Assembly: GCA_035650735.1 (NCBI GenBank)
Contig: DASRGZ010000115.1
Span: forward strand, 1 to 64,000
Direction: 5' to 3'
From: Chthonomonadaceae bacterium
GTDB taxonomy: Bacteria; Armatimonadota; Chthonomonadetes; Chthonomonadales; Chthonomonadaceae
Length of the DNA stretch: 64,000 bases
Notes under the pieces: generated by a model
What the model was told of the DNA's origin: nothing
The model's input: only the letters and a program-made list of their open reading frames with translations
Databases searched by the model: none
In this document: positions 52,492 to 64,000 of the stretch, one piece after another
Layout of the letters: the number at the start of each line of letters is the position of its first letter
How positions within the stretch are numbered: the stretch's first letter is position 1
Program-made: the position numbers and the translations under genes

Positions 52492-53487
52492 ATGGCCACC
52501 TACTATAACTCGGATGCCGCCGCCCGCGCCGCGCGACTGTTTCAGATCGTGACTCTGGTTGCTTCCCGCAGACCGGGCGAGCGGATCGGGCGCGAACAGC
52601 TTGCGGAGGCGTGTGAGTGCACCATCAAGACTATTCAGCGGGATATCCGATGTCTGCAAGAGGCGCAGGTTCCCCTGGAGTATGACGTCCTTGCGCGCAC
52701 CTATACCCTGCCCGTCCGAGGATGGGCCTATCCCGTCGTCAAGATGACCGCGACCGATGCCATGGCCCTTGCCATTGCACGCGGCCTGCTGGTCAATACG
52801 CCCTCCGCGCTGCCCTTTGCCTCGGAGATTGCGACGGCACTGGAGAAGGTCACGGCGGGATTGACTCCAGCCCTGCGCGCCCTGCTGGAGGCGGCTTCCC
52901 GCGCGCTGACCGAGCACGGAGGCACCGCGCGCGACTATTCTCACGCCCCGGTCGGGCGGCTGCTGGAAGCTATCGCCCTGCGCCAGACGGTGGAGATGCT
53001 CTACGAAAGCCGCAGCAGCCACACCACGGAACGCCGCGCCGTAGACCCCTACCGCCTCGACCGGCGGGACGGGCGCTATTTTGAGCTCCAAGCTTGGTGC
53101 CATCGGCGGCAGCAGGTGCGCACCTTTGCCCTCGACCGTATCTCCGACGTTCGCCTGACGGGACAGGTCTTCACGCCGCATCCCTGGGATGAGAGCGACG
53201 AAGGGGTTGTCAGCGGTTTACGTGGCGGCGCGCTCATCCCCGTAGAGGTGCGCTTTGATGCGCGGGTTGCGGCCTATGCGCGGGAACGGCGCTGGGGCTT
53301 CACGCCAACCTTTGAGAATCAGGAGGATGGTTCGGTCATCCTGCGCGGGGTGGCGCGTGGCACGGACGGCATCCTGCAAGAACTGCTGGCGTGGAAGCGG
53401 TTTGCCCAGGTGCTCGGCGGGCCGGAACTTCGCGCCGCCATGCAGCAAGAGATACGCGCGATGGTAGCGTTGTATGAGGAGACTTAA
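52492..53487 (+). CDS. HTH-WYL-WCX transcriptional regulator (PafB/PafC/DriD-like architecture)
   Basis: N-terminal wHTH (LAEACECTIKTIQRDI); WYL domain (RAVDPYRL..YFELQAWCH..VRTFALDRI); C-terminal QVLGGPELR. Confidence 0.92.
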   Translation: MATYYNSDAAARAARLFQIVTLVASRRPGERIGREQLAEACECTIKTIQRDIRCLQEAQVPLEYDVLARTYTLPVRGWAYPVVKMTATDAMALAIARGLLVNTPSALPFASEIATALEKVTAGLTPALRALLEAASRALTEHGGTARDYSHAPVGRLLEAIALRQTVEMLYESRSSHTTERRAVDPYRLDRRDGRYFELQAWCHRRQQVRTFALDRISDVRLTGQVFTPHPWDESDEGVVSGLRGGALIPVEVRFDARVAAYARERRWGFTPTFENQEDGSVILRGVARGTDGILQELLAWKRFAQVLGGPELRAAMQQEIRAMVALYEET

Positions 53488-53554
53488 GTCCTTGTTGCGA
53501 CAAATAAATTATCCCAAATTTATAAAAAATTTACCAAAAAGCTAACCAAAAGGC

Positions 53555-53583
53555 TTGACAGGGGGGGTGAGCTTTGTGATAAT
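53555..53583 (+). promoter_or_regulatory. Sigma70 promoter candidate
   Basis: TTGACA-N17-GATAAT preceded by an AT-rich tract. Confidence 0.65.
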
Positions 53584-53644
53584 GCGCTTGCCAGCTTTGA
53601 TAGAGGGTGTAAGTCGCAAATCAACACAAATAGGAGGAGATCGC

Positions 53645-60640: not shown

Positions 60641-63504
60641 TGAGACAGACGATTGGTGTCAAGGGCGCACGTGAAAACAATCTCAAGAACCTGGATGTCG
60701 AAATTCCCCGCGATCAACTGGTCGTCGTCACGGGTCTGAGCGGTTCCGGGAAGTCCTCCCTGGCCTTTGAGACCATCTACGCCGAGGGACAGCGGCGCTT
60801 CCTGGAGTCCCTGTCCGCCTTTGCCAAGCGCTTTGTCTCCCAACTCAAGAAGCCCGCCGTAGATTTCGTCTATGGCCTCTCTCCCGTCATCTCCATCGAG
60901 CAGAAGACCGTCAGCAAGAACCCGCGCTCCACCGTCGGCACGATGACCGACATCTACGACTACATGCGGATGCTCTACGCGACCATCGGGGTCGCGCACT
61001 GTCCCTATTGCCGCCGCGAAGTGCCCATCAAGACGGCGGAGCAGATGACCGAGCATCTTCTCTCGCTGCCGGAGGGCACGGCGGTCGAGATCTGCGCGCC
61101 CGTGTTCAAAATCTACGGCGAGGACTACGCCTACCTCTTCGCCGAGATACGCAACAAGGGATATCGCCGTATGCGCGTTGATGAGGATCTAATAGACATC
61201 AGCGAGGACGTGGACCTCGATGAGACGCGCACCTATAAGATGGAGGCCGTCATTGACAAGTTCATCATCAAGCGCGAGTTCCATAAGCAACTGCGCGTCT
61301 CCATCGAGCACGGGCTGCGCGTCGGTGAGGGCTTCCTGCGCTTCCGTATCCTGACCCCGGAGAAGGCAGGCCGCCGTCTGGAGACCTTTTACAAGGACTT
61401 CGCCTGCCCGGAACATCACCTGACGATGGGGGAATTGCAAGCCTACTACTTCAGCTTCAACGAGTCCGACAGCGCGTGTGTGACCTGTATGGGCCTGGGC
61501 ACCTACCTGAAAGTCCACCCTGATTTGATCGTGCCGGACAAGACGCGAAGCATTCTGGGCGGCGCGTTCATTCCCGAAGCGTTCCGGTACGACAAAGACA
61601 CCTGGAACGGCAGGATCATGTATAGCCTGGCGCAGCACTACGGCTTTCGCCTGGATGTGCCCTTCCAGGACCTCTCCCCTGAAGCCGTGGACATCCTCCT
61701 CTACGGCACGAAGGGCGAGCGCTTTACCCTGTTGCTGCCGGAGGGCGCGACCAAAGGCGACCCGCACGTGGGCAAACCCTTCCGGTTCGACGGCATCATC
61801 AACAACATCGAGCGCCGATATCGCCACTATCGCAAGCAGCAGGTCGCCCACACCTGGATGGAAGAGTATCTGAAGAAGGTCATGGTCGAGCATACCTGCC
61901 CGGACTGCCAGGGGACCAAGCTCAAGCCGCAGCGCCTGCTGGTCACGCTCAACGGCAGGACCATCCACGAGCTGGGCGATCTGCCGCTCACCGACCTACG
62001 GGAGTTTCTGGGCAGCCTGCCGCCTGCCGCGCGCCAGCACGAGGCCGGGGAGTCGGTCAAGCAGGAGATACTGGGTCGGCTGGATCTGCTGCTGGGCATC
62101 GGCATGGACTATATCAGCCTGAACCGCAAGGCGGCGACGCTGGCGGGCGGCGAGTCGCAGCGCGTTCGCCTCTCTACGCAGATCGGCTCCGGCCTGATGG
62201 GGATGCTCTACGTCCTGGACGAGCCGAGCATCGGCCTGCACCCGCGCGACAATTTCAAGATGATCAACACCCTTAAGCGCCTGCGCGACATCGGCAACAC
62301 GGTGATCGTCGTCGAGCACGACGAGGAGACGATCCGCGCCGCCGACCATATCCTGGAGATCGGCCCCGGCCCCGGCGTGCACGGCGGGCAGGTGGTGGCG
62401 CAGGGAACGCCGGAGGAGATCCTACAGAACCCGGCCTCACTGACCGGCCTGTACCTGAGCGGCGCGGCGCAGATCGAGACTCCGGCCCGGCGCAGAAAGC
62501 CGAAGGGCAAGGCGCTGATCGTGCGCGGGGCGCGCGAGAACAACCTGAAGAACATAGATGTGGAGTTCCCGCTCGGCGTCTTCCTCTGCATCACCGGCGT
62601 CTCCGGCTCCGGCAAAAGCACGCTGGTGAATGAGATTTTGTTCAAGAAGCTCTACTCGCTCTTCCACGACAGCCGGGTGCTCTCCGGCGCGCACGACGGC
62701 ATCGAGGGCGTGGAGCATATCAGCGATGTCCTGGATATTGATCAGTCGCCCATCGGACGGATGCCGACCTCCAACCCGGCGACCTACACGGGCATCTACG
62801 ACCATATTCGCAAGCTCTTTGCGGAGACGGCGGAGGCGAAGAAGCGCGGCTACACGGCATCCCGGTTCAGCTTCAATATCAAGGGTGGGCGCTGCGAGGA
62901 GTGCGGCGGGCAGGGCGTAGTGACGACCCAGCTTCATTTCATGCCCGATGTGGAGGTGGTCTGCGAGGTCTGCAAGGGCGCGCGCTACAACCAGGACACG
63001 CTGGAGGTGTTCTATCGCGGCAAGAACATTGCCGATGTGCTCGATATGTCCATCGAGGAGGCGGTCTGCTTCTTCGCCGACAAGCCCCTCATCGCGCACA
63101 AGCTTGGAGTTCTCAATCAGCTTGGCCTGGGCTACTTGAAGATAGGCCAGTCCGCAACGACCATCTCCGGCGGCGAGGCGCAACGGGTGAAGTTGGCGCA
63201 CGAGCTGGGCAAGATCAAGCGGGGCGGGCGCAACTTCTACATTCTCGACGAGCCGACGACCGGACTCCATCTGGCCGACATTCAACGCCTGCTGGACAGC
63301 CTGAACCGCCTGGTGGACGCGGGCAACACGGTCCTGGTCATCGAGCACCACCTGGACGTTATCAAGACGGCGGACTGGATCATAGACCTGGGGCCGGAGG
63401 GCGGCAACGGCGGCGGGCGCGTTATCGCGCAGGGGACGCCGGAGGAGATCGCACAGTGTCCCGATTCTTATACCGGCCAGTTCTTGAAGACGAAGCTCCA
63501 CTAA
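60640..63504 (+). CDS. uvrA: Excinuclease ABC subunit A homolog (probably a divergent paralog)
   Basis: GARENNLKN twice; Walker [10 protein letters not shown] and GVSGSGKST; Zn-finger CxxC pairs; LDEPSIGLH and LDEPTTGLH. Confidence 0.93.
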
Positions 63505-63643
63505 ACATCGCTGCCCGACCAATCGTCGCAGGGGACGAGCCGCCAGCCATGCTTGTGTAGAGCAGTAAGGTTCTTCAGGCGGCTCACCCCTGAACTCGGT
63601 AGTTATGCAGCAGGGATTAAGTCAGCGAGAGGGGACATTTCCG

Positions 63644-64000
63644 ATGAGCGATGACTTGCAGAGAGCCAGGAAGCAGAAGACCGCTATAGCCCCCATGCTC
63701 TCGGTGCGAAACGGGGCGCGTGCGGTCGAGTTCTACAAGGTGGCGTTCGGAGCCGAGGAGGTATTCCGCATCGAAAGCGAGGATGGGCACATGGTTGCTC
63801 GGTTGTCCGTGCGGGGAGCTGAATTCTGGCTTGCCGACGAGTCTCCGGAGTATTTCAACTTCAGCCCCGAGTCGCTCGGTGGCGGCTCTGTGCGGATGGT
63901 GATGACCGTGGAAGACCCGGATGCCTCTTTCGAACGGGCTGTCGCAGCAGGGGCTACCAAAGTTTGGCCCGTCAGCAATCAGCACGGTTGGCGCTTAGGA
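63644..64000 (+). CDS. VOC/glyoxalase-bleomycin resistance (PhnB-like) protein, partial
   Basis: IAPMLSVRNGARAVEFYKVAFGAEE..VEDPDASFERAVAAGA; runs off the window edge. Confidence 0.85.
   Translation, partial: MSDDLQRARKQKTAIAPMLSVRNGARAVEFYKVAFGAEEVFRIESEDGHMVARLSVRGAEFWLADESPEYFNFSPESLGGGSVRMVMTVEDPDASFERAVAAGATKVWPVSNQHGWRLG

Follow-up and report, generated by a model that had tools for sequence, protein, structure and literature searches.

A candidate DriD-like WYL activator and its putative dispersed regulon, including a nucleotidyltransferase-uvrA operon, in a Chthonomonadaceae bacterium

What determines which promoters a WYL regulator reads, and how might such a regulator come to act away from its own gene? 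The closest described case is DriD of Caulobacter crescentus, a winged helix-turn-helix (wHTH)-WYL-WCX protein with a GAC...GTC palindrome over a missing -35 and a small, dispersed, LexA-independent regulon (PMC13004042, PMC10853764). DriD promoters lack a -35, by cryo-electron microscopy the site keeps a fixed distance to the -10, with sigma4 docked on the opposite face (PMC13004042), and the bases are contacted by R37, E40, and R41 (PMC10853764). DdaA of Moraxellaceae/Acinetobacter is a WYL activator of repair genes and CRISPR-Cas, described as initially local, with distant genes recruited later (PMC12392091, PMC13010146). SiwR of Mycobacterium smegmatis is a homodimeric activator with a 19-bp palindrome between the -35 and the -10 of one adjacent dinB-like operon (PMC10693628), and the mycobacterial PafBC is a heterodimer that uses a short non-palindromic site at -26, works by sigma adaptation, and controls about 150 genes (PMC13004042). 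Other WYL proteins repress: BrxR acts via inverted repeats, with a box between the -10 and the start of its own gene, and Sll7009 represses a CRISPR I-D locus (PMC9122601). Here we analyse a stretch of 64,000 nt from a Chthonomonadaceae bacterium (contig DASRGZ010000115.1 of assembly GCA_035650735.1; "the window" is this whole stretch), in which a 53-bp palindromic promoter element occurs twice downstream of a wHTH-WYL-WCX gene, and compare it with these systems.

We propose, with a probability of about 60%, that the WYL protein of the window is a DriD-like, not PafBC-like, homodimeric activator which came from a clade of Cas-linked regulators and now runs a small dispersed regulon. The window lies on contig C115 of its source genome (G000, 6.5 Mb, 97.6% complete), and the argument depends on five of its features:

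52492..53487, plus strand: wHTH-WYL-WCX transcription factor of 331 amino acids (aa), the putative binder of the palindrome (Pfam WYL 59 bits, WCX 47 bits)
56169..56221, plus strand: promoter element copy 1 (palindrome 56170-56195, TG 56200-56201, -10 TATCAT 56203-56208)
59473..59525, plus strand: promoter element copy 2 (palindrome 59474-59499, TG 59504-59505, -10 TATCAT 59507-59512)
59711..60640, plus strand: nucleotidyltransferase (NTase)-fold protein of 309 aa, with an NTase domain, a helical domain, and a C-terminal wHTH (Pfam Polbeta)
60640..63504, plus strand: full-length UvrA paralogue of 954 aa, here UvrA2 (TIGR00630, 1234 bits against a cut-off of 730)

The two copies of the element are identical at 48 of 53 positions and share the architecture GCCAGGGACA-N6-TGTCCCTGGC-N4-TGn-TANNNT, in which a perfect 10-bp inverted repeat encloses a 6-nt spacer. 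The spacer is variable and is itself the hexamer 17 nt 5' of the -10; it reads GGAGGT in one copy and GGGTGT in the other, with 0/6 and 1/6 matches to TTGACA, and the palindrome straddles the position where the -35 is missing. An earlier note on this DNA had described the two copies, their inverted repeat, the TG and TATCAT at fixed distance, and the lack of a recognisable -35, and all of this is confirmed, as are its calls of a triple HTH_17 gene, a Pol-beta NTase, a UvrA, and a glyoxalase-type gene. It had also placed an HTH-WYL-WCX gene 2.7 kb upstream of copy 1. The distance (the gene ends at 53487) and the WYL and WCX domains, both above their Pfam cut-offs, stand; the HTH is a weak match (HTH_11, E 6e-4) under the cut-off.

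The note had proposed a local regulon, but neither the element nor its targets are confined to this locus. Pattern and position weight matrix (PWM) scans find five intact copies in G000, three of them outside the window: at C115:65341, 1.3 kb beyond the window end and before open reading frames (ORFs) of 61 and 77 codons; at C101:3559, before a short-chain dehydrogenase/reductase (SDR) gene of the PRK08303 family; and at C220:7945, before the gene for a 599-aa ABC exporter. The SDR and exporter targets are thus on other contigs. At 21 bits or more the PWM has 10 matches in G000, with seeds and reverse readings included, and none in either of two locally shuffled genomes; when each of the five seeds is left out in turn, the omitted seeds rank 1, 2, 3, 5, and 5. 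The occurrence of the element in G000 is not due to chance. With respect to repair genes, the five intact copies include that of NTase-uvrA2, and recA, the canonical uvrA1 (on C120), and uvrB have no element within 450 nt upstream and are not among the top PWM hits in G000. A global SOS-like regulon is rejected on these grounds, and so is a general DNA-damage regulon. As a side observation, a PafC-like WYL protein encoded on C65 is a candidate controller of recA and uvrA1 in G000.

How is the element distributed beyond this genome? Allowing at most two mismatches, the strict element occurs in five of 401 genomes of the phylum, and its reversed control in 0/401. Two of the five, G306 and G408, were rejected as chance-like, the match in the former having no -10 and that in the latter lying inside an ORF on the opposite strand, which leaves genuine copies in G000, G130, and G054 only. 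In G054 the element starts 7 nt past the stop of a WYL gene and precedes a cas3-type helicase gene, and its right arm TGTCCCTGGC is identical. In G130, which belongs to another family and order, the element has two copies, one in front of NTase-uvrA2 and one in front of where the SDR orthologue starts (this orthologue is split across a contig break whose ends differ at a few bases). A PWM built from the two G130 sites alone gives ranks 1-5 to the five sites of G000. G130 also encodes the closest orthologue of the window WYL protein, 71% identical and the best match after G000 among the 401 genomes; this is its one PF13280 match in total, and neither a cas gene nor the element adjoins it. These results speak for a co-occurrence of the motif with this type of WYL protein. 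An exact scan of a species-representative collection finds three stretches, namely a G130-type NTase promoter, a G054-type site, and a site in G411 to which we return below. In viral contigs the palindrome has 53 exact matches, and with 0/53 carrying a -10 at 13 nt, a phage origin was rejected.

Comparison of the targets suggests that NTase-uvrA2 is the conserved member of the regulon. The element is present at two of 36 NTase loci examined, those of G000 and G130, with three of the 36 having less than 100 nt of upstream sequence. At E<=1e-80, neither G130 nor G001 yielded an orthologue of the ABC exporter. The triple-HTH gene behind copy 1, which the note had also counted as a member, is seen as a target in G000 only: 0/15 other homologue loci have TGTC-N13-TANNNT (four of 20 loci were left out), and the gene was not found in G130, which is 85% complete. 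The sequence GAGTCCTG 3' of the -10 is common to copy 2 (the NTase promoter), the NTase promoter of G130, and copy 1, and the SDR promoters of G000 and G130 share GAT.GG after the -10; for each of these two genes, the bases after the -10 correspond between the genomes. Because copy 1 has GAGTCCTG in common with the NTase promoters, it probably arose by local duplication of the NTase promoter, with the triple-HTH gene recruited to it. Among 17 of 20 SDR loci considered (L178-L180 were left out), four carry TGTC-N13-TANNNT beside, and divergent from, a different WYL gene, and for this reason PRK08303-family SDR genes appear to be a recurrent WYL target. These four loci (L166, L168, L171, and L175) also have a GACA-N5-TGTC-like site.

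The WYL protein itself aligns to PafC, its best sequence match in the PDB (E 5e-8), across residues 14-231, and to DriD (E 2e-4) in the C-terminal part; the DriD HTH did not align. Two of its motifs, the helix KTIQRD at 46-51 and RTFALDRI at 210-217, are present in 19/19 database members of its subclade. Residues K46, Q49, and R50 of the helix, invariant in the same 19/19, match DriD R37, E40, and R41 by spacing only and not by alignment. WYL matches at E<=1e-25 occur in 34 of the 401 genomes, and the clade that we analysed has 24 loci, 23 from a supported branch of a first tree and one fragment; the fragment L088 was omitted from the WYL trees. Downstream of the clade genes, 18 of 24 loci continue with cas genes or an array: 13 with cas3/cas6 by Pfam, one with a helicase gene in a cas cluster, and four with a CRISPR array. 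One further locus is cut off, and the remaining five, among them those of the window gene and of its orthologue in G130, have none of these downstream. At the loci L073, L076, L077, and L080 a CRISPR leader and array come right after the WYL gene, without an intervening cas gene.

A GACA-like/N6-7/TGTC-like palindrome followed by N13 and TANNNT lies within 260 nt past the WYL stop at 12 of the 24 loci, a count whose enrichment is partly post hoc and to that extent tells against us, the rule (half-site, spacer of 6-7) having been fixed after some loci were inspected. By comparison, no other spacing from 8 to 18 is found at more than three loci, the seven outgroup loci have none, and shuffles give a mean of 0.28 and a maximum of 2 (n=500). 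A thirteenth site, in G384, falls just outside the 260-nt range. In G000 itself, a paralogue on C93 has such a site directly 3' of its gene and before cas6, GGATGGACA-N6-TGTCCATCC, with 13 nt from TGTC to TATCCT; this is the best PWM match of a differing type in the genome, and it has the GGACA-N6-TGTCC core in common with the element and different outer arms. The pairing of the window and G130 proteins was weakly supported in the first tree (96/59). In a denser tree they belong to a short-branched subclade of 20 rows with an SH-aLRT of 97 (no bootstrap), and the C93 paralogue falls outside it. A scan of metagenomes with the window protein returned its own sequence only, and a search of 42 genomes of the family found no further close orthologue. 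From outgroup rooting and the contexts of the 24 loci we infer that the Cas-linked arrangement probably came first and the solo regulator later.

How does the window system compare with those already described? WYL activators with a palindrome before the -10 are a known kind, and the system most likely belongs with DriD and DdaA, drawn from the Cas-linked clade. It resembles DriD in the points given at the outset. The DriD operator, however, is GAC-N7-GTC, with 12 nt counted in a printed probe from TGTC to the presumed -10 (the hexamer 17 nt after an engineered -35; PMC13004042), whereas here the operator is GAC-N8-GTC with long conserved outer arms, a GC-rich spacer, and 13 nt. K, Q, and R, matched by spacing, stand for R37, E40, and R41, the window WYL gene has no site before it, and the targets differ. 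Like DdaA, the window regulator would tie DNA-damage genes to CRISPR-Cas, and both have alanine at the first ssDNA-binding arginine (PMC12392091). DdaA is global, with up to 20 genes including recA, ssb, and uvrA and a motif CGWCA-N5-TGWCG about 50 bp before the transcription start (PMC12392091, PMC13010146); the window regulon does not include recA, uvrA1, or uvrB, and its site has its centre near -32. SiwR is likewise a homodimeric activator with a palindrome just 5' of the -10, and glyoxalase-like genes recur near it (PMC10693628), but our site spans 26 bp and straddles the -35 position, and the targets are dispersed. PafBC shares the WYL-WCX fold and promoters without a -35. The note had drawn its analogy to both PafBC and DriD; the DriD half, a palindrome over the -35 position, is retained, and the PafBC model, with its heterodimer and non-palindromic -26 site, is rejected, as the locus has a single WYL gene and a palindromic site.

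What does the conserved target encode? The NTase stop codon overlaps the uvrA2 start. An AlphaFold2 model of the NTase (pLDDT 90.7) and a structure-atlas comparison are concordant on a YgxA/kanamycin-NTase fold, and Foldseek matches it to the YgxA-like 3c18 (E 1e-13, TMq 0.71) and to the kanamycin NTase ANT(4') (E 9e-10, TMq 0.58). With both it shares the fold and the G-S and D-x-D motifs at 14-17% identity; from both it differs by its coupling to uvrA and by the frequent fusion to extracytoplasmic function (ECF) sigma factors or tandem duplication in its family. G-S, D-x-D, and one histidine are invariant across 90 sequences (alignment A1, which includes one ECF-fused row, P0052), and the histidine presumably occupies the position where a third carboxylate is usual. 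The family is broad, with 744 matches, and a uvrA gene lies 3' of the NTase in 29 of 36 loci. Among the best 120 of the 744 homologues, 38 are fused behind an ECF sigma factor (P0010, P0061, and others; loci L138, L140, L141, and L152), a fusion that would be another means of regulating this NTase-uvrA2 operon. Double-length forms are common (234 longer homologues, many labelled Poribacteria); no NTase-UvrA fusion was found among 120 of these 234, of 572-731 aa, and two related shorter forms are tandem NTases.

UvrA2 has two ABC modules, an insertion domain, UvrA_inter (132-235), and UvrA_DNA-bind by Pfam, and is 51% identical to the canonical UvrA1. Class II UvrA resistance proteins such as DrrC and Ecm16 lack the UvrB-interaction domain; unlike these, UvrA2 keeps it and has the full architecture of the class I UvrA of UvrABC, as a second, inducible-looking copy beside the housekeeping one. 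It differs from class I UvrA by a changed interaction surface, translational coupling to the NTase, and predicted NTase binding. Family-invariant residues of the interaction domain are unlike those of UvrA1, for example R171 for L and R176 for V, and because of these differences the UvrA2-NTase complex was predicted. UvrA2(91-500) with the NTase scores 0.65, and the best of three controls 0.00; of the solved complexes 116/157 attain the mark for this score, as against 2/215 for mismatched pairs, counts that are roughly valid with custom alignments. At least 83% of contacts recur between runs, and the partner pLDDT is at least 81. The predicted interface comprises UvrA2 148-224, in the UvrB-interaction domain, and 321-396, in the insertion domain, and R176 faces an NTase glutamate conserved at 93%. 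The comparison was made with UvrA1 only: of the 27 positions of the interaction domain that are predicted to lie in the interface, UvrA1 and UvrA2 are identical at no more than 8. Because the NTase has no sequence relative among solved PDB structures, no like complex is apparent. The model thus predicts that the NTase binds the UvrB-interaction domain of UvrA2, and two points tell against it: the interface is not more conserved than the rest (0.69 against 0.68 in the NTase and 0.62 against 0.61 in UvrA2), and the three controls were without canonical UvrA1 and UvrB.

Taken together, the co-occurrence of WYL and element, the G130 targets, and the geometry at the clade loci make it very probable that the window WYL protein binds the palindrome, as the earlier note had proposed; the placement of the palindrome is that of an activator site. 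If it does, activation is a good deal more probable than repression, and the signal is likely to be single-stranded DNA (ssDNA) or genotoxic stress. We propose that the regulator would sense single-stranded nucleic acid, bind the half-sites on either side of the missing -35 as a dimer, and recruit RNA polymerase to the five G000 promoters. The ancestral regulator would have controlled its own adjacent Cas operon, and its descendant would act in trans on a small protective regulon. UvrA2 would bear the NTase on the domain with which canonical UvrA binds UvrB, recognise DNA-bound lesions or drugs, and hand them over to the nucleotidyltransferase instead of UvrBC, while the SDR, ABC exporter, and VOC proteins would detoxify or export the agent.

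Several observations weigh against this proposal, and we consider them with the alternatives that they bear on. The dispersed regulon is seen in two genomes only, both draft assemblies, and kin are not independent. The best of the alternatives, in our view an unlikely one, is that the extended -10 promoters are constitutive and kept repressed by the WYL dimer until a ligand releases it, as for BrxR, CapW, and Sll7009. These repressors, like the window regulator's clade, lie beside defence systems, and they use inverted-repeat operators (PMC9122601). At all seven regulon sites, five in G000 and two in G130, the -10 agrees with TATAAT at 4-5 of 6 positions and is extended by TG, and because such a -10 can work without an activator it would suit a repressor, for which reason repression keeps some probability. 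The same seven sites, however, have no -35 (0-1 of 6 matches to TTGACA), and the 13-nt phase to the -10 is rigid across divergent loci, while the TG is absent at about half of the cas-linked clade sites. Moreover, the BrxR box lies between the -10 and the BrxR gene itself (PMC9122601), whereas our sites keep a fixed phase 5' of the -10 and either follow the WYL gene or lie elsewhere, and no element precedes the window WYL gene.

A distinctly improbable variant is that the protein activates in response to phage- or CRISPR-derived ssDNA or RNA, or to another nucleotide ligand, and that the regulon is an anti-phage or toxin-stress response. Its relatives are Cas-linked, and its WYL pocket is altered: A213 stands at the first ssDNA-binding arginine (PafC R201), R216 being kept at the second, and there is an Arg-rich YRLDRRDGRY loop. 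Since recA, uvrA1, and uvrB are without a site, uvrA2 is the one gene on which a role in DNA damage depends. The NTase resembles MntA and HalB weakly, far under the cut-off. But the conserved target is a full-length UvrA, the SDR, VOC, and exporter targets suit chemical stress, and relatives of the NTase were not found in viral contigs or plasmids.

Could another factor be the main reader of the sites? Candidates are the Cas-linked WYL protein of C93, the PafC-like one of C65, the triple-HTH protein, and a nearby MerR, and we hold this to be scarcely probable. G000 has four WYL matches in all; the C93 paralogue, 59% identical to the window protein and with the same KTIQRD helix and core half-sites, could bind too. 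In G411 (L096) one exact element with a -10 lies between genes of an apparent polysaccharide cluster, and no WYL match was found in that genome; this element, which may be due to chance or to a missed regulator, counts against an exclusive pairing of element and WYL protein. On the other hand, G130 holds sites but only the window-type WYL protein, neither the triple-HTH gene nor, at E<=1e-8, a MerR match was found in this 85% complete genome, the outer arms of the C93 site differ, and the MerR gene has a promoter of its own with a 19-bp spacer. The least probable alternative, which takes the element for an intrinsic terminator or a dispersed hairpin repeat and the -10 match for incidental, can draw on a GC-rich stem with at least five T in the 8 nt after it at 5/7 sites, on the scoring of both window copies as terminators, on the position of copy 1, 65 nt past the stop of a 591-aa ORF, and on a degenerate copy after the VOC gene, but 3/7 sites are flanked by divergent genes, so that there is no transcript to end, all seven face a downstream gene, TA...T is held at fixed distance while arm pairing falls to 7/10, and the true dispersed repeats of G000 are different. 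The genes 5' of copy 2 lie on the opposite strand. Copy 1 may have a second role as a terminator. The degenerate copy at C115:64104 (L001:2105-2150), GCCAGGGAGA-N6-TCTCCCTGGC, is 44 nt past the VOC stop; its two arms carry a paired change, its -10 is poor, and it may be either a decayed promoter or an operon terminator.

Under the proposal of a WYL activator, several points of wider interest follow. Judged by titles and the openings of abstracts, we found no description in the open literature of this WYL clade, its operator, the regulon, or the NTase-UvrA pair or complex, and the available parts of PMC3710099, PMC7835731, and PMC13453472 hold nothing on such a pair. The comparison yields GACA-N6/7-TGTC-N13-TANNNT as a candidate rule for operator and promoter in an unstudied WYL clade. 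This clade precedes type I CRISPR-Cas loci, at which WYL control has no settled direction, Sll7009 being a repressor and DdaA an activator. For DdaA a path from a local regulator to a dispersed regulon has been proposed, and the window system appears to stand early on this path, in a genome in which lexA was not found. The lexA search (TIGR00498) was negative in G000 and in G001 (same genus, 89% complete) and positive in 38 of 41 genomes searched; lexA loss was rejected as a general explanation of the regulon, since G130 has two lexA matches above the cut-off. The part of the regulon that we find most interesting is the NTase-UvrA2 module with its confident predicted interface, an uncharacterised gene pair tied to a likely nucleic-acid-sensing inducer. 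The structural hypothesis puts the NTase on the UvrB-interaction domain, and if it is true UvrB and Mfd would not be the only partners and outputs of UvrA. As a whole, we regard as tentative, and rather doubtful, the fuller picture in which a CRISPR-Cas regulator and its operator were co-opted into an ssDNA-inducible pathway of repair or drug removal outside UvrABC, a dedicated UvrA dimer, whose UvrB-binding domains carry two NTase subunits, nucleotidylates the ends of DNA or the drugs or proteins bound to it, and the same clade is a widespread ssDNA-primed activator of type I CRISPR-Cas.

Finally, we note other genes and repeats near the elements. Two further features of the window are:

56333..57181, plus strand: triple HTH_17 (excisionase-like) protein, 282 aa from ATG or 294 aa from GTG 56297 (Pfam HTH_17 x3, TIGR01764 x3)
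63644..64000, plus strand, ending at 64060 of the contig: VOC/glyoxalase-family gene, 139 nt past the uvrA2 stop (Pfam Glyoxalase_6)

The multi-HTH_17 family (L182-L199) occurs in 12 of 61 relatives, with up to six copies per genome, and several members have a W/Y-P-G-x-x-W-like tail. Beyond the window end, a MerR-family gene (L001:2334-3107, G000 C115:64333-65109) has a TTGACT-19 bp-TACACT promoter that holds its own palindrome, and the small ORFs of 61 and 77 aa (L001:3433-3894, G000 C115:65432-65896) stand behind a full element; the 77-aa ORF, which has no Pfam or NCBIfam match, is matched in 22 of 30 genomes of the family. The uvrB gene of G000 (C92:7879-11409, minus strand) contains about 510 additional codons, inserted in frame close to its start, which may be an intein. 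By Pfam, the stretches 47134-50550 and 51375-52359, upstream of the WYL gene, hold an rve-type transposase and an IS21-like istA/istB pair, together with a PadR-HAAS pair that diverges from the WYL gene. Among the dispersed repeats, a repetitive extragenic palindromic (REP)-like 18-mer, GGCAGGGTT(C/T)AGCCTGCC, has 230 exact copies in G000, one of them at window 59538-59555 within the NTase leader of about 190 nt. A 107-bp element resembling a miniature inverted-repeat transposable element (MITE), with 18-bp terminal inverted repeats, has 75 BLAST matches in G000, most of those printed 100% identical; its two identical window copies lie at 50690-50796 and 53937-54043, and the second breaks an ORF that starts at 53555.

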